Positions 104 to 4,612 of a DNA stretch of 29,322 bases are shown here, one piece after another. The DNA lies in IMG/VR virus record IMGVR_UViG_3300029814_000010, positions 1-29,322 of that record; one strand, written 5' to 3'. The translations under genes were made by a program, and so were the position numbers. A model generated the notes under the pieces. It was not told the DNA's origin. It worked only from the letters and a program-made list of their open reading frames with translations, and did not search any database. The stretch is from a virus. Positions within the stretch are counted from its first letter, which is position 1; every line of letters begins with the position of its first letter.

Positions 104-135
104 AAAAAAAAGACTTGGCAGCATGAGCTACCAAG
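104..135 (-). terminator. Intrinsic terminator (minus strand)
   Basis: Minus-strand read: CTTGGTAGC-TCAT-GCTGCCAAG (9-bp stem, 1 mismatch) followed by a run of 8 T. Confidence 0.6.
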
Positions 136-235
136 CGACATGAAAAACAAAAACATTCGGCACGTAATCGCCTAAAGTACATCTATAGTGTACCTTTATT
201 TAGATTAAATGTCTAACGATTTATCACGAATACAC

Positions 236-259
236 AAAAAGGCTAGGATAACCCTAGTC
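236..259 (-). terminator. Weak hairpin plus T-run just after the stop of the 183-aa gene
   Basis: CTAGG-GTTAT-CCTAG core stem starts 3 nt after the stop at 262-264 and is followed by TTTTTG on the minus strand. The stem is short. Confidence 0.4.
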
Positions 260-261
260 TT

Positions 262-813
262 TTAACGGATATTCTCTAAATTATTTTCAATCCACTCAAG
301 TCGATTTTGGCGACCTGCTGGTATCGGCTCTTGGCTTCGTGAATAGTCTTTAAATCTCATTTGCAACATGTACTCACCGCCACCGATAGAGCTGGATTCC
401 AATGCAATTTCTAAATAAGCACTAGAAATCCAATTACCGCCCGCTGTGTACATTCTGCCAGCACCTCCGATGATGTCATCATGGCTGTTTTCAAGCCATT
501 TTAAGAGTTGCTGTTTTTTGAATTGATCATAATAGGCATAAAACGGCATATTCATTTTTAAAGAATTATCCATGTAGTAATCAATTTGAGTCTTACCAAT
601 CATGGCAAGTTCAAAATCATCAAACAAGCAGTCGAGCATTGCATTTACTCGTGCCGCTCCCATCTTTTCAATAGAAGTATCCCCATTTTTGAATTTTTGC
701 CAATTGGCGTCAGTAAACTTAATATTAGGAAGACGGTAGAAGTCGTTTTCAAATTTAAAATAACGCCCTACGTATTCTAAAATTAGGTCTTTGATGTCGT
801 TGTTGATAATCAT
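262..813 (-). CDS. Hypothetical 183-aa protein, second gene of the post-lysin cassette; no family recognised with certainty
   Basis: Long ORF. I prefer the ATG at 813 (MIINNDIKDLILEY...) because AAGGAG lies 7 nt upstream. The track start at 840 lacks an SD. Confidence 0.8.
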   Translation of the reverse strand: MIINNDIKDLILEYVGRYFKFENDFYRLPNIKFTDANWQKFKNGDTSIEKMGAARVNAMLDCLFDDFELAMIGKTQIDYYMDNSLKMNMPFYAYYDQFKKQQLLKWLENSHDDIIGGAGRMYTAGGNWISSAYLEIALESSSIGGGEYMLQMRFKDYSRSQEPIPAGRQNRLEWIENNLENIR

Positions 814-824
814 GTTTATTCTCC

Positions 825-1160
825 TTACGCTACGTCCCAAACTTTTTCAGAAATATAGTAAGTACCAATGTTAGAACCGTCAGCTACTACTTCGATACCG
901 TAGTAAGCACCAATTTTGTGCATTACTTCGTTGAATTTAACCACTTTAGCACTGTCTAGCACTTCAACCATTGACCATTTGCCAGATTTACGCATTTTAG
1001 CTTCAACTGCTTGGAATTTAGCAAGGCTAGTGTCACTATCTTTGATAGCAGCCCACGCCATTTTCATTGCTCCTGCGATGTATTCAATAGCTTTACCGCC
1101 GAATTTTTTAGCAGCTTCTTTTGAAATTTCCCAAGCGTTTGTCATAAGTTCTTTTTTCAT
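825..1160 (-). CDS. Hypothetical 111-aa protein, first gene of the post-lysin cassette
   Basis: ORF with SD AAAGGGAG upstream of the ATG at 1160. The N-terminus is helical (TNAWEISKEAAKKFGGKAIEYIAGAMKMAWAAIK). The stop lies 11 nt before the next start. Confidence 0.8.
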   Translation of the reverse strand: MKKELMTNAWEISKEAAKKFGGKAIEYIAGAMKMAWAAIKDSDTSLAKFQAVEAKMRKSGKWSMVEVLDSAKVVKFNEVMHKIGAYYGIEVVADGSNIGTYYISEKVWDVA

Positions 1161-1193
1161 GGTTCTTACTCCCTTTCTTTATCTTACATGTAT

Positions 1194-1222
1194 ATTATAT
1201 ATCATATATGATAGTTTGTCAA
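1194..1222 (-). promoter_or_regulatory. Consensus sigma-A promoter driving the 111-aa/183-aa cassette
   Basis: Minus strand reads TTGACA (1222-1217), an exact 17-nt spacer, then TATAAT (1199-1194). The spacer contains the perfect palindrome ATCATATATGAT (1201-1212). Confidence 0.7.
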
Positions 1223-1254
1223 CGCTTTTGATAAAGAAATTTAAGTTTTTTTGT

Positions 1255-1285
1255 AAAATAAAAAAGCCCGGCGCAAAGTCGGGGC
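1255..1285 (-). terminator. Intrinsic terminator (third of a stack)
   Basis: GC-rich imperfect hairpin GCCCCGAC-TTTGC-GCCGGGC followed by TTTTTTATTTT on the minus strand. Confidence 0.5.
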
Positions 1286-1362: not shown

Positions 1363-1393
1363 AAAAAAGAGCTATGAGACTAACTCATGGCTC
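1363..1393 (-). terminator. Intrinsic terminator (second of a stack)
   Basis: Minus strand: GAGCCATGAG-TTAGT-CTCATAGCTC (9 of 10 bp) followed by TTTTTT. Confidence 0.7.
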
Positions 1394-1415
1394 TTTGCCT
1401 ATGATGGATAGATAT

Positions 1416-1427: not shown

Positions 1428-1454
1428 AAAAAAAGCCCCAGCAAATGCCGGGGC
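1428..1454 (-). terminator. Strong intrinsic terminator closing the late/lysis operon
   Basis: Minus strand: GCCCCGG-CATTTG-CTGGGGC (7 bp including one G-U) followed by TTTTTTT. The G-U pair makes it minus-strand specific. Confidence 0.8.
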
Positions 1455-1549
1455 TTCGACCACTACTGCCATTGTATCCCTACTGCAGTCTGAGGGGAGG
1501 TGATATACTCCTTTTATTTTATTTTGTTTCGTGGTCTGTTATTTACAGT

Positions 1550-2296
1550 TTAAGCGAATGAACCGAACGACGTTACACGGCGGCCATTCTCTGATTGCCC
1601 AACTGCGACATAGCGACGATTTCCAGACCAGCTAATGTAGCTAATCCAGATATAGCCGTCAACGTCACACCAACCGTCATAGTTGATAGTTTCACCAGCT
1701 CCATAGACTGCCACGATTTCAGCACCTAAACCAGCGCCAGCTCGAACATTAAGAGCTGAGACTTCAACTGTGAATGTTCCGATTTCTTCGTTAATAGTAA
1801 TTATACCATCGAACGGGGTCGGAGTTGGTGCAGGAGCTTGTGATTGGTTGTCTGTTGGGAAGTAGAACCAGCCTACAATACCGTCAAAATTGCGTGTATT
1901 GTAACGAGCAGGACCACCAACATACAAGCTATCAGCGTTGCCGTCAATATTCTGCTCAATTGTTCGCATGGTATAGCCGTCTGAATCTTCGATAACCAGA
2001 CCAGTGTGTCCGTATGAATGCCCTGCGATGTAAGTAGTATCCATGACGAATACAGCCCCACGACGTGGACGACTGTCAAGGTTTCCCACTTGGTTATACT
2101 CGATTTCATAGCCCGCTGCTGCCGCTGAGTTTAGCAAGTCAATAGCGTTGCCCCAAAGGGCACGACCAAAGAAGTTAATTGAGATAGAGTTAGGCAGGTC
2201 AACGCATTGTGTCCCCCAACTTCCATCTGCATCGGTACCAATCCCAGCATTAGCTAGGTCTTCTGCAAATTGAATGATGTCGTTATCTGTTGCCAT
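1550..2296 (-). CDS. Endolysin, N-terminal CHAP domain plus C-terminal SH3b cell-wall-binding domain
   Basis: Catalytic-Cys context WGTQCVDL and downstream His (SYGHTGLV). A PAPTPTP linker follows. The SH3b-like tail is ALNVRAGAG...VDGYIWISYISWSGNRRYVAVG. Start moved to ATG 2296 (SD GGAAGGA), one nt from the holin stop. Confidence 0.9.
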   Translation of the reverse strand: MATDNDIIQFAEDLANAGIGTDADGSWGTQCVDLPNSISINFFGRALWGNAIDLLNSAAAAGYEIEYNQVGNLDSRPRRGAVFVMDTTYIAGHSYGHTGLVIEDSDGYTMRTIEQNIDGNADSLYVGGPARYNTRNFDGIVGWFYFPTDNQSQAPAPTPTPFDGIITINEEIGTFTVEVSALNVRAGAGLGAEIVAVYGAGETINYDGWCDVDGYIWISYISWSGNRRYVAVGQSENGRRVTSFGSFA

Positions 2297-2808: not shown

Positions 2809-3135
2809 CTACTCTCCCTTTGCTTGATTATATGCAGATAGATAATCTACATCAGCCACAGCGTCAATCTTTTTGCCAAGCTCTGTCAACTTAGCTACGA
2901 TCGCTTCGCTAGTATCGCTATTGAGAGTACTAATCTTATCTGCAATCTCTTTTAGAGTGTCAAGATTCTCTGGAACTCCTTCGCCGAGAATTTCCGCTTT
3001 TAGCTGTTTGACTGCCTCGTTTAGCTGCTGCTCAGTGATGCCACTCCCTGCCTCTTTATCATTGATTGCTTTTTGCAAATTCTTGATGTCTGTACCGATT
3101 GCAACCACTACAGCTTCTAATTTATTTTTAGCCAT
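2809..3135 (-). CDS. Hypothetical coiled-coil protein (108 aa)
   Basis: I prefer ATG 3135 (MAKNKLEAV...), preceded by AGGGAG. The track start at 3150 is a TTG inside the SD region. Confidence 0.7.
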   Translation of the reverse strand: MAKNKLEAVVVAIGTDIKNLQKAINDKEAGSGITEQQLNEAVKQLKAEILGEGVPENLDTLKEIADKISTLNSDTSEAIVAKLTELGKKIDAVADVDYLSAYNQAKGE

Positions 3136-3241
3136 GCATTCTCCCTTCAAATTTTAGCTAAATTATATATAGCTACTAAATCTGGAAGCTCATCTACAGT
3201 ATCGCTGTCTAAGTGCTTCCGTACTTCCTCAGCCAGCGCTT

Positions 3242-3601
3242 TTATTTTGGGTCTTCGGTATTGCTTGGAATACTGTCAGATGGATTGAATGACGGGCGAA
3301 CACGTATTTTAAATTCATCCGTCGGGAAAATAAACCCATCTAGTTTTAATTCCAACTTGTAACGACCAGGATCTACAGCGTCTTTGAATTTGAAGTTGAA
3401 ACGACCTGATTCTACAGATACATCTTCATACAGAATTACTTTTTTCGCATTGAAGATGGCAAGCTTACCTGCGCCAGATAAGTCTTTCTTCAAGCCGTCA
3501 TCGCCCAAAATCTCAAATTCAAATACTGATGCAGTGTCTCCCGATTTAATTACACACCCGCCGTCAACTTGCCTAATGCTTGTCATGACATCATTAATCA
3601 T
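3242..3601 (-). CDS. Hypothetical phage protein (119 aa), probably beta-rich
   Basis: ORF overlapping the stop of the upstream holin-like gene by 8 nt. No family recognised. Confidence 0.7.
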   Translation of the reverse strand: MINDVMTSIRQVDGGCVIKSGDTASVFEFEILGDDGLKKDLSGAGKLAIFNAKKVILYEDVSVESGRFNFKFKDAVDPGRYKLELKLDGFIFPTDEFKIRVRPSFNPSDSIPSNTEDPK

Positions 3602-4013
3602 TCTCGTCGGTCTCCTTTAGATAAAACTTCTCTTTATCAATATTCCTCTTTACATACTTGTCAATAAAAGGTATTTCCACTCCTAACGCTGATAGACTAG
3701 CCAAGATACTAGAAGTGTAAGCCGCAATCATGGAAAAAATGAATGCATCAACAATGCTCGTCAGATTCATGAAATTTGCGAATGGATAGAATATTGCCAC
3801 GAACACAATCATTACTGTATGGCTGATTGCCCCTTTACGAAATTTTGCACTTGAAAGTTCGTGAGCAGCCCAAGCTCTGGACACACCCACGGCAACGTCT
3901 GAAAAAATGATTATGACGAGGAAAAGTACCCATGGATGCTCATCGATACCATGCGCATAAAAGTCTCGGACGACATCAAAGAGCCCAAAGATTCCGTCTG
4001 GTTTCTGTGCCAT
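3594..4013 (-). CDS. Holin-like membrane protein (Phage_holin_4_1 / toxin-secretion holin-like)
   Basis: 139 aa from ATG 4013 (SD GAAGGAGAA; TAATG overlap with the upstream stop). It has 3-4 hydrophobic helices, and FSDVAVGVSRAWAAHELSSAKFRKGAISH resembles the family core. Confidence 0.65.
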   Translation of the reverse strand: MAQKPDGIFGLFDVVRDFYAHGIDEHPWVLFLVIIIFSDVAVGVSRAWAAHELSSAKFRKGAISHTVMIVFVAIFYPFANFMNLTSIVDAFIFSMIAAYTSSILASLSALGVEIPFIDKYVKRNIDKEKFYLKETDEND

Positions 4014-4612
4014 TAATTCTCCTTCGGTTTGAATAGCCATGCAGTGGCAATCCCATTGTTTTCGAGCTTGCCACCTTTTGCGAAATCAGCGAATGGCTGA
4101 TTTTCGTAAATGAAAGACCCGTTAACTTGGATAAGTACCAGCTTGCCTTCTCCATCCACTTCTTCGTGGTCTGGGGCTTCGATAGCGAAGATATCCCCAG
4201 CGTTGAACACATCGCCTTTTTTAGCGACTGGCAACAATTCCAAGTATTGCTTGTAGATTGTGCCATACTGGATATTCTGACTCATTACCGCATTGAGGAT
4301 GGACACATTAGCAATCTTACGAGTCAACTCGCCTTGTTCAGCGACTTTCTCAGCCAAATTCAAGCGGTTGTCAAGCTCTTTAATAGATTCTTCTGACTTG
4401 GCTTGATAGCGTGCCAATGCCCCGGCGGGGTCCAGCTCAGTCGTCAAGATGTCCAAGATAAGCTGGATTTTAGCTTCATCCGTCTTGCTCGTGTGGTCGC
4501 CCGGAACGTCTCGTGTCAACCACGTCGAGCCATCTTTGGACTGGATGGCAACCCGTGTTGTTGTCGGGTTGGTCAGATAACTCGATGTAACACTGAAATT
4601 AGATTTATTCAT
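4013..4612 (-). CDS. Hypothetical tail-fibre-associated protein (199 aa)
   Basis: ORF in the conserved slot between tail fibre and holin, with an overlapping start. Confidence 0.75.
   Translation of the reverse strand: MNKSNFSVTSSYLTNPTTTRVAIQSKDGSTWLTRDVPGDHTSKTDEAKIQLILDILTTELDPAGALARYQAKSEESIKELDNRLNLAEKVAEQGELTRKIANVSILNAVMSQNIQYGTIYKQYLELLPVAKKGDVFNAGDIFAIEAPDHEEVDGEGKLVLIQVNGSFIYENQPFADFAKGGKLENNGIATAWLFKPKEN

Follow-up and report, generated by a model that had tools for sequence, protein, structure and literature searches.

Layout of the cassette and its flanking signals

The window analysed here (29,322 nt, positions 1 to 29,322 of the IMG/VR record IMGVR_UViG_3300029814_000010) carries two minus-strand genes close to its first nucleotide. 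A gp111-family leader gene (825..1160; 111 aa, Pfam PF07410 Phage_Gp111) is followed by acrIIA6 (262..813; 183 aa, full length including the N-terminal HTH/dimerisation region), and the window ends 261 nt beyond acrIIA6. The gp111 stop codon TAA (827-825) is separated from the acrIIA6 ATG (813-811) by a gap of 11 nt. Shine-Dalgarno motifs were read off the minus strand at 1169..1175 (AAGGGAG, with the gp111 ATG 8 nt downstream) and at 821..826 (AAGGAG, overlapping the gp111 stop codon). The position of the latter is consistent with translational coupling of acrIIA6 to gp111. A preliminary description of this DNA had reported two coupled minus-strand ORFs with this gap and with the second Shine-Dalgarno sequence at the stop of the first gene, and the coordinates were confirmed.

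Outside the cassette, the late operon ends with an endolysin gene (1550..2296, minus strand; likely start ATG 2296). Its product was assigned by the Pfam domains CHAP (6e-12) and SH3_5 (1e-9) and by phrog_1309 endolysin (1e-86), and the stop codon was found at 1550, where it had been placed before. Three terminators had been claimed downstream of this gene. Two of them are strong, namely an intrinsic terminator at 1432..1457 (minus strand; 11-bp stem and T-run, dG -20.5, z -3.6) and a terminator-like hairpin with T-run at 1363..1396 (minus strand; inverted repeat I3, dG -15.4, z -4.1), but the third, a hairpin with T-run at 1255..1285 (minus strand), is weak or degenerate in the window (dG -6.7, z -0.5). 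Relatives (L005, L007, L011) have a clean GC hairpin at this place. Similarly, of the two terminators claimed after the second gene, the distal one was upheld as a strong intrinsic terminator closing the operon (113..136, minus strand; 10-bp stem with T8, dG -16.5, z -4.2), but the hairpin with T-run right after the acrIIA6 stop (243..257, minus strand; 6-bp stem) is weak and marginal (z -1.3).

The operon is preceded by a sigma-A consensus promoter (1194..1222, minus strand) with the -35 box TTGACA at 1222-1217, a spacer of 17 nt and the -10 box TATAAT at 1199-1194. The perfect match that had been noted at this position was verified: it is the sole 12/12 consensus match within the first 3 kb, and about 100 related loci have kept the promoter ahead of gp111 or acrIIA6. 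The A/T-rich stretch TTTTACAAAAAAACTTAAATTTCTTTATCAAAAGCG directly upstream (1223..1262, minus strand) is conserved in related loci and likely represents an UP element. The 5'-UTR contains the conserved motif GTAAGATAAAG (1177..1187, minus strand), in which AAGATA(A) was invariant in the locus alignments. The variable region downstream of the lysin gene, which encodes Acrs, was previously described as preceded by perfect sigma-A promoters with UP elements (PMC13575424).

The GC content of the two coding sequences is 37.8% (36.5% for positions 1-1549) vs 44.1% for the lysis, structural and terminase genes, and equally low values were found in only 7 of 285 sliding 900-nt windows. The lower GC content had been estimated by eye before and was borne out by these values. 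With its own promoter and terminator, a deviating base composition and, in relatives, different cargo at the same slot, the locus has moron-type traits, in agreement with the earlier view that an accessory cassette with a promoter of its own occupies the post-lysin position. Rfam and tRNA scans of the window gave no matches.

Identity of the encoded proteins

A phmmer search of the PDB with the 183-aa protein retrieved AcrIIA6 (6eyy_A) with an E-value of 1.1e-104 over residues 1-183 of both proteins. The protein also matches phrog_4964 (E 1.9e-114), and its homologue in SA-TP2 carries the annotation AcrIIA6. By homology, it is identified as full-length AcrIIA6, a member of the family of the solved allosteric St1Cas9 inhibitor. 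AcrIIA6 of phage D1811 (PDB 6EYY/6EYX; complexes 6RJ9, 6RJA and 6RJG) also has 183 aa and was aligned end to end without gaps at 83.1% identity. Both share the post-lysin slot, an upstream gp111-type gene, the HTH/dimerisation region and residues G167, R168 and N170. Unlike the D1811 protein, the window allele, which is known here from its sequence, has 31 substitutions including N81M and T118A. Taken by itself it is of little importance, being a diverged natural variant of a much-studied Cas9 inhibitor at the usual genomic position.

The N-terminal HTH/dimerisation region (residues 1-75) is present, with only 2 substitutions in residues 31-74, and the HTH region (residues 31-75) is also the most conserved part among 60 unique AcrIIA6 alleles. 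Truncated forms of AcrIIA6 (delta-1-59) were reported to lose inhibition of interference (PMC9120153). G167, R168 and N170, which were named as contact residues (PMC8632846), are kept in the window allele, and positions 81 and 118, which the literature also places at the St1Cas9-sgRNA surface, are changed. Among the 60 natural alleles, position 81 is hypervariable (L/I/F/M/S) and A118 is the majority state. Since both changes lie at the described Cas9/RNA interface, the target range of the window allele may differ from that of D1811 AcrIIA6. Alleles differing at these two positions may help to tune St1Cas9-type genome editors. Pfam searches found no HTH in either cassette protein; that of AcrIIA6 is known from the crystal structure only. 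Binding of nucleic acids by the HTH dimer of AcrIIA6 was observed by BLI (PMC6060171), and the protein is listed among the HTH-bearing bifunctional Acrs (PMC10901769).

The 111-aa protein was assigned to PF07410 with an E-value of 1.8e-25 and 90.2 bits (cutoff 27.1), aligning residues 4-110 with positions 1-116 of the 117-position profile. It matches phrog_8487 (E 2.8e-60) and equals gp111 of Sfi11/Sfi19. Its N-terminal module is helical, and the C-terminal helix/beta domain is specific to the family. The N-terminal module, about 45 aa long, recurs in about 750 protein clusters whose C-terminal domains are diverse. Sequence and profile searches of the PDB with gp111 gave nothing below E 0.3, and a sequence scan against genome contigs gave no confirmed relative. 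Two AlphaFold models of mediocre quality (pLDDT 60.8 and 69.3) were compared with PDB and BFVD using Foldseek. The only significant match was a 72-aa sequence homologue of gp111 itself, and no nucleic-acid-binding fold was detected in the structure comparison.

The cassette thus is a known streptococcal anti-CRISPR operon and neither new nor uncharacterised: the proteins are AcrIIA6 (PDB 6EYY) and PF07410, the gp111 of Sfi11/Sfi19. The preliminary description had listed it as an uncharacterised conflict system, which does not hold; its guess of an anti-defence function, with anti-CRISPR named at the top of its list, was right. Two other options of that list were abandoned. An anti-phage defence system was ruled out by a PADLOC check, in which neither protein matched a family at E <= 0.1. 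A toxin-antitoxin pair was ruled out by the non-obligate co-occurrence of the two genes described below, and by the lack of homology to toxin-antitoxin families in Pfam, PHROGs and PADLOC.

Related loci and the candidate operator

The cassette pair equals gp111/gp183 of Sfi11 and Sfi19. Compared with gp111/gp183 of Sfi11, Sfi18, Sfi19 and CHPC919 and with gp8/gp9 of SA-TP2, it has the same genes, gene order, promoter region and post-lysin position, and the DNA is 79-83% identical to these pairs over about 1.15 kb. SA-TP2, a prophage of S. salivarius, is the closest phage. There the integrase gene directly follows the acrIIA6 operon, whereas in S. thermophilus phages further genes (83-aa, 59-aa and, in some, Aca12) precede the cro-like early genes. 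The operon of the window ends after acrIIA6 with terminators, as in SA-TP2. Its phage is of temperate type and belongs to the salivarius group, with a backbone only patchily similar to cultured phages. In the comparison across relatives that had been proposed earlier, the post-lysin slot was found to carry different cargo.

The first gene of the operon is likewise variable. Among 81 AcrIIA6 loci for which promoter and first gene could be assigned, the latter was gp114 in 42, gp111 in 23, AcrIIA6 itself in 7, a 60-aa gene in 6 and a 74-aa gene in 3, so that gp114 and gp111 are the commonest first genes and 58 loci are without gp111. Conversely, gp111 precedes AcrIIA31.1, AcrIIA25 or orf14/AcrIIA5 elsewhere, and further genes may lie between gp111 and AcrIIA6. 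It is probably the unnamed "conserved gene" by which Hynes 2018 found acrIIA5 and acrIIA6, both of which sit downstream of a conserved gene (PMC6060171). In P7602, the 111-aa gp111 homologue orf1 (ARU14016.1) is directly followed by AcrIIA25 and AcrIIA6, all in one orientation; because orf1 was toxic in E. coli, it was not possible to score it for activity (Song et al. 2022; PMC8934645). In the same study, orf10, a homologue of the alternative first gene gp114, was inactive against SpyCas9, St1Cas9 and St3Cas9. A kinship of the gp114 and gp111 N-termini was considered and found to be weak (35% identity over 40 aa; 14.7 bits for PF07410, under the threshold).

Between the -35 and -10 boxes of the window promoter, a perfect 14-nt palindrome, TATCATATATGATA, was read at 1200..1213 (minus strand) and is regarded as a candidate operator. 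The family consensus of this spacer palindrome is AAACTATC-N6-GATA. Of 83 loci with full-length AcrIIA6, 81 carry TATC-N6-GATA (here called the type A promoter), irrespective of which gene comes first. In IMG/VR (2.9 million viral contigs), 67 exact sites were found, of which 63 adjoin AcrIIA6 and 4 are cut off by contig ends; none was demonstrably without AcrIIA6. A search of the window for more copies returned the promoter site only.

Other palindromes occupy the same promoter position in other operons. Type B was found in gp111 operons with an Aca13-fused AcrIIA31.1, and types C and D in operons with Aca12 and without AcrIIA6. At a type B locus, gp111 is 93% and the upstream 70 nt are 91% identical, yet the spacer palindrome is a different one and AcrIIA31.1-Aca13 is encoded. 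At a distant type A locus, the spacer is 100% kept despite only 73% identity of gp111 and 64% of the upstream region. Across loci, the repeat type thus co-varies with the regulator (A with AcrIIA6, B with the Aca13 fusion, C and D with Aca12), although this reflects few independent events, because types B, C and D may each go back to a single recombination event. From this co-occurrence, AcrIIA6 would act as its own Aca, binding TATC-N6-GATA and repressing its own promoter, and the chances of this appear somewhat better than even. The arrangement resembles that of Acr-Aca fusions (AcrIIA1, AcrIIA13-15, AcrIF24 and AcrIIA32/Aca13), in which a DNA-binding dimerisation domain and a Cas-inhibiting surface are combined in one protein and a palindrome lies in the acr promoter. 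As in the window, the inverted repeat to which Aca13 binds in streptococcal acr promoters is flanked by the -35 and -10 boxes (PMC12282945). In contrast to these self-repressing fusions, the operator of AcrIIA6 is proposed here by comparative inference.

The palindrome may instead be bound by another protein, for instance a regulator encoded by the prophage or the host (at other loci, Aca12 or an AP2-domain protein), or may simply be inherited promoter sequence; the operon would then be constitutive or regulated in trans. We give this alternative somewhat less than an even chance. It is favoured by the shortness of the invariant arms (TATC and GATA, 4 bp each, the latter abutting the -10 box) and by the 18 variants of the 6 central nt. 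In many type A loci, acrIIA6 is immediately followed by a gene for Aca12 or an AP2-domain protein, and at these loci that protein could be what actually binds the palindrome. For Aca12, an inverted repeat in acr promoters has been validated by EMSA (PMC13551039), and for the published DNA binding of AcrIIA6 sequence specificity was not demonstrated. On the other hand, type A promoters occur in the window and in at least 20 other loci with neither Aca12 nor AP2 in the available DNA, and Aca12 operons without AcrIIA6 bear other palindromes (types C and D). Selective conservation of the spacer where the flanks had diverged to 64-73%, and the absence from IMG/VR of sites demonstrably away from AcrIIA6, also argue for AcrIIA6 as the binder.

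Two further explanations concern gp111 and are both improbable. gp111 and AcrIIA6 could form a two-component unit (toxin/antidote or chaperone/effector) with gp111 as toxic effector, as might be suspected from the tight coupling of the genes, with a Shine-Dalgarno motif over the stop codon, and from the toxicity of the P7602 homologue when expressed alone. Such a unit is made very unlikely by the exchange of partners in both directions, with a different or no first gene in 58 of 81 AcrIIA6 loci and other Acrs behind gp111 elsewhere, by the absence of toxin-antitoxin or defence family matches, and by the finding that AcrIIA6 alone, expressed from a plasmid, suffices to abolish CRISPR immunity (PMC6060171). 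Scarcely more probable is gp111 as an Aca-like, non-HTH regulator of the operon, perhaps acting via the 5'-UTR motif. It heads operons of all four operator types, all with the AAGATAA motif; non-HTH Acas are known (Aca13, PMC12282945), and RNA motifs in acr 5'-UTRs were proposed (PMC13551039). However, the motif lies behind every operator type and also occurs in the 58 type A operons without gp111, no nucleic-acid-binding fold was detected, and operator type does not track gp111. For the last reason, gp111 was rejected as an operator-specific regulator.

Proposed working and implications

Overall, the locus is best explained as an acr operon in a siphophage or prophage of salivarius-group streptococci, located in the variable region between the lysin and the lysogeny or early genes (probability about 85%). 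The preliminary description had suggested a moron that is probably active in the lysogen. An early anti-defence operon describes the cassette better than a lysogenic-conversion gene, because virulent S. thermophilus phages carry it as well, in a variable region which the literature treats as early-expressed and in which acr genes of streptococcal phages lie (PMC9120153, PMC13575424). The operon would work as follows. The sigma-A promoter with its A/T-rich element probably fires upon DNA entry, a timing taken over from the literature on S. thermophilus phages, and gp111 and AcrIIA6 would both be translated from the resulting bicistronic mRNA. The AcrIIA6 dimer is expected, by homology, to bind Cas9 in complex with guide RNA in CRISPR1-type (St1Cas9-like) type II-A systems. 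Allosteric lowering of Cas9 DNA binding would then protect the phage genome or, in a lysogen, the prophage. Once enough protein is present, the conserved N-terminal HTH dimer may bind the palindrome and turn the strong promoter off. As a tentative best guess, gp111, which is conserved at the head of several such operons, would be a second anti-defence or host-takeover protein with a target other than Cas9; what bears on its function is its position and the toxicity reported for the homologue. Variable-region Acrs against all four CRISPR systems of S. thermophilus have reportedly been described by Johnson et al. in 2025 (CRISPR J, Nat Microbiol).

That both parts hold jointly, with AcrIIA6 as a true Acr-Aca fusion using a TATC-N6-GATA operator and gp111 as a new anti-defence or host-takeover protein, is rather unlikely. 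For AcrIIA6, the candidate operator provides a concrete and cheap prediction of the missing regulatory half. If it is correct, streptococcal acr operons swap an operator of about 18 bp along with the regulator, with the first gene and the remaining promoter sequence left in place. Such an exchange of operator and regulator modules could help to predict the regulator for each acr promoter, and the promoter used as a search query could help to find new Acrs. If the assignment of gp111 is correct, a large modular family of early counter-defence proteins in Firmicutes phages might be recognisable by the N-terminal module of gp111.

Distant proteins with the N-terminal module of PF07410 were also inspected for gene context, on contigs that are mostly too short to be informative. 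One of these proteins has a phage lysis module and an HTH gene as neighbours; downstream of another lies the gene for a protein that gives a faint AP2 match.

Organisation and identity of the cassette

Within the first 1.6 kb, the minus strand was found to be laid out as in the preliminary description, except that two of the five hairpins were weak. The endolysin (CHAP and SH3_5 domains, minus strand, stop at 1550) was followed on the same strand by two strong terminators at 1432-1457 (dG -20.5, z -3.6) and 1363-1396 (dG -15.4, z -4.1), whereas a supposed third one at 1255-1285 was weak (dG -6.7, z -0.5); relatives carry a clean GC hairpin at the same place. The promoter, described as perfect, matched the sigma-70 type at 12/12 positions (1222-1194, TTGACA, 17-nt spacer, TATAAT). 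Tight coupling of gp111 (825-1160, minus strand, 111 aa) and acrIIA6 (262-813, minus strand, 183 aa) was likewise confirmed, with 11 nt between the ORFs and the second Shine-Dalgarno sequence overlapping the first stop codon. Of the two hairpins reported 3' of acrIIA6, that at 113-136 was a strong terminator (dG -16.5, z -4.2) and that at 243-257 only marginal (z -1.3). The AT-richness judged by eye was borne out by 37.8% GC in the two genes versus 44.1% in the lysis, structural and terminase genes; equally low GC occurred in just 7 of 285 sliding windows.

The 183-aa protein matched AcrIIA6 (PDB 6EYY/6EYX) across all 183 residues with E 1e-104, and also AcrIIA6 in the St1Cas9 complexes 6RJ9, 6RJA and 6RJG. 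The 111-aa protein was assigned to Pfam PF07410, "Streptococcus thermophilus bacteriophage Gp111 protein" (90 bits, cutoff 27). As both proteins match published AcrIIA6 and gp111, the cassette belongs to an already known type of anti-CRISPR operon. Among the roles proposed for it, anti-defence was the right one, and the toxin-antitoxin-like and defence options were not. The label "uncharacterised" does not apply, since AcrIIA6 is solved and published and gp111 is a Pfam family. Judged from homology, which also assigns the activity, the locus is of an ordinary, already understood kind, a new AcrIIA6 allele with its usual partner gene, and the protein would inhibit CRISPR1-type (St1Cas9-like) Cas9. 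Residual interest lies in a testable operator prediction and in the function of gp111.

acrIIA6 was originally found through its position downstream of an unnamed "conserved gene", which lies ahead of acrIIA5 as well (Hynes et al. 2018, PMC6060171); from gene order, this is probably gp111. acrIIA6 is carried by 35% of S. thermophilus phages, and its product, a dimer whose HTH domain escapes detection from sequence, bound nucleic acids in bio-layer interferometry (PMC6060171); AcrIIA6 is counted among the bifunctional HTH-bearing Acrs (PMC10901769). A later guilt-by-association search used AcrIIA6 as its bait (Song et al. 2022, PMC8934645). Orf1 of that study (ARU14016.1, phage P7602, 111 aa) was identified here as a gp111 homologue; its Acr status was undecidable for those authors because it was toxic in E. 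coli (PMC8934645).

Against the gp111/gp183 pair of phages Sfi11, Sfi18, Sfi19 and CHPC919, and likewise against gp8/gp9 of S. salivarius prophage SA-TP2, the cassette showed 79-83% DNA identity; in SA-TP2 the second of these genes carries the annotation AcrIIA6, and an integrase gene lies directly next. DNA similarity to SA-TP2 stopped at position 107, just beyond the operon terminator; the unrelated stretch 1-106 is very short and could represent either the attachment-site region or another kind of integrase end. The window protein was 83.1% identical to the crystallised one from S. thermophilus phage D1811 (31 substitutions). Among 60 unique alleles, residues 31-75 (HTH region) were the best-conserved part. 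Position 81 (window ~571-573) is N in the crystallised form and reportedly points towards the Cas9-RNA surface. Across the 60 natural alleles it was hypervariable, with L in 31, I in 14, F in 7, M in 5, S in 3 and N in none; at position 118 (~460-462), 37 alleles have A and 21 have T. Such variation may be an adaptation to different Cas9 orthologues.

The remaining genes, all on the minus strand, were those of an ordinary streptococcal siphophage with only patchy backbone similarity to cultured phages, and encoded Erf, SSB, RusA, an ArpU-like activator, terminase, tail proteins, two holin-like proteins and the endolysin. The holin-like genes are separate (2298-2594 and 3594-4040, minus strand; phrog_33625/297 and phrog_199), with small coiled-coil ORFs (2587-2805 and 2809-3150) between them, upstream of the endolysin.

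Operator types and proposed autoregulation

Compared were 36 IMG/VR loci with gp111, 79 IMG/VR loci with AcrIIA6 and 7 genome loci with AcrIIA6. The promoter was conserved in every one of these loci, and its spacer fell into discrete palindromic types. Type A (TTGACA-AAC-TATC-N6-GATA-TATAAT) goes with AcrIIA6 and is present in the window as the perfect 14-mer TATCATATATGATA (1200-1213, minus strand). Type B, the 24-nt palindrome TATTATAGTACATGTACTATAATA, goes with a 125-aa AcrIIA31.1, an Aca13 fusion identified via Song 2022 Table S1. Types C (GTTGACGTATGTCAAC) and D (ACTTGACGTACGTAAAGT) belong to gp111-orf14-AcrIIA5-Aca12 and truncated gp111-AcrIIA31-Aca12 operons, respectively, both without AcrIIA6. 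In type B loci (L006, L008, L011, L012, L015, L021 and L038; promoter at ~2940-2970) the palindrome is perfect across spacer and -10 box and is likely the Aca13 operator. A 5'-UTR motif, (G)TAAGATAA(A/G)G (window 1177-1187, minus strand), a few nt after the -10 box, was invariant in loci L003-L123, across all four operator types and every first gene; it may belong to the transcription start region, act in translation or be an RNA motif.

By these comparisons, operator type tracks the DNA-binding protein of the operon, not gp111. Full-length AcrIIA6 was encoded at 83 loci, of which 81 had a type A promoter ≤1.3 kb upstream; of the other two, one had too little upstream DNA and one a decayed copy. 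The first gene behind it was gp114 (42), gp111 (23), a 60-aa gene (6), a 74-aa gene (3) or AcrIIA6 itself (7, promoter 19 nt upstream). Conversely, 2.9 million viral contigs contained 67 sites with the exact pattern TTGACAAACTATC-N6-GATATATAMT, 59 of them with AcrIIA6 nearby, 4 more with AcrIIA6 on the same contig and 4 cut by contig ends; none of the 67 was demonstrably without AcrIIA6. Identity to type B locus L011 was 91% in the upstream 70 nt, 93% in gp111 and 71% in the spacer, versus 64%, 73% and 100% for the distant type A locus L029; on these alignments the operator swap is local.

Streptococcal acr genes lie in a region with early expression during infection (PMC9120153), and, from the literature, the operon promoter would be a strong early one. 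We propose that the AcrIIA6 dimer binds TATC-N6-GATA and thereby shuts off its own operon. This repressor role rests on co-occurrence, and we put its probability at roughly 0.55. Precedent for the architecture is provided by Aca13, which represses streptococcal acr promoters via an inverted repeat between -35 and -10 (PMC12282945); Aca12 promoters also contain an inverted repeat, bound by Aca12 (PMC13551039). Elsewhere, the type A site could instead be acted on by Aca12 or AP2 proteins, but the window encodes neither, so that AcrIIA6 is the sole candidate regulator there. The invariant type A arms are, however, short, one abutting the -10 box, and the operator/regulator pattern may stem from few independent swap events. 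A prophage has to escape targeting by its own host's CRISPR system, and autorepressed but leaky expression in the lysogen would suit that need, although this is speculative.

In many oral-streptococcal loci (L080-L112, L120-L123), the stop codon of acrIIA6 overlaps the start of a gene for a ~200-aa Cys-X2-Cys-rich protein with an AP2-like domain, homologous to orf2 of Song 2022; here, the 6 nt at the operator centre were mostly TTAxAx, not ATxTAT. A second type A promoter was found downstream of acrIIA6, driving further small genes, at L070:3081, L074:3096, L075:2930 and L114:3081 (including Aca12 in L070), which suggests that a single regulator may control adjacent operons, a behaviour already reported for Aca11 and Aca13. 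At the decayed locus L113:2100-3003, Acr and promoter were lost together: acrIIA6 is frameshifted and, with the promoter deleted, the terminator runs directly into a 5'-truncated gp114.

gp111 and its N-terminal module

The C-terminal domain of gp111 (~residues 45-111; invariant K55, H81, G84, Y86, Y87, G88, E105 and W108) is the family-defining part and occurred alone in 69-72-aa proteins of type D loci. The N-terminal ~45 residues are a widespread module (AWEIAK..A.KKFGGK..EY..EALK.AW). A profile search yielded 750 representative clusters, ~16 at E <= 1e-10; most matched by this module only, located at the N-terminus of 100-340-aa proteins with unrelated C-termini, and PF07410 scored in 10 of 10 scanned proteins. 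AlphaFold models (pLDDT 61 and 69) predicted four helices followed by a three-stranded sheet; sequence, profile and structure searches returned no solved structure or fold relative, and no defence-model match was found. Since gp111 is constantly the first gene of acr operons and was reportedly toxic in E. coli, an anti-defence or host-takeover function is our best, albeit tentative, guess.

More AcrIIA6 operons begin with gp114 (MKSQVMSLAWKIFKNEKNDVTFSEALKFAWKAVK..., 114 aa) than with gp111 or any other first gene. Homologous to Song 2022 orf10, gp114 lies ~34 nt behind the type A promoter in 42 loci, among them L041, L043 and L047. Its likeness to gp111 was weak and N-terminal only (35% over 40 aa), with PF07410 below threshold.

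The N-terminal module seems to have been exchanged between small accessory proteins of phages. In many proteins, among them P0131, P0154, P0156, P0215 and P0236 from the profile search, it is fused to a domain bearing SEGSRKHKSY.A...G, a motif partly similar to Song 2022 orf4, which neighbours Aca11. At L189:202-1399, in an unrelated phage, a distant 163-aa protein with the module lies beside a gene with a weak HTH_59 match, the pair being convergent on the lysis module (Amidase_2, XhlA) in a similar post-lysin slot.
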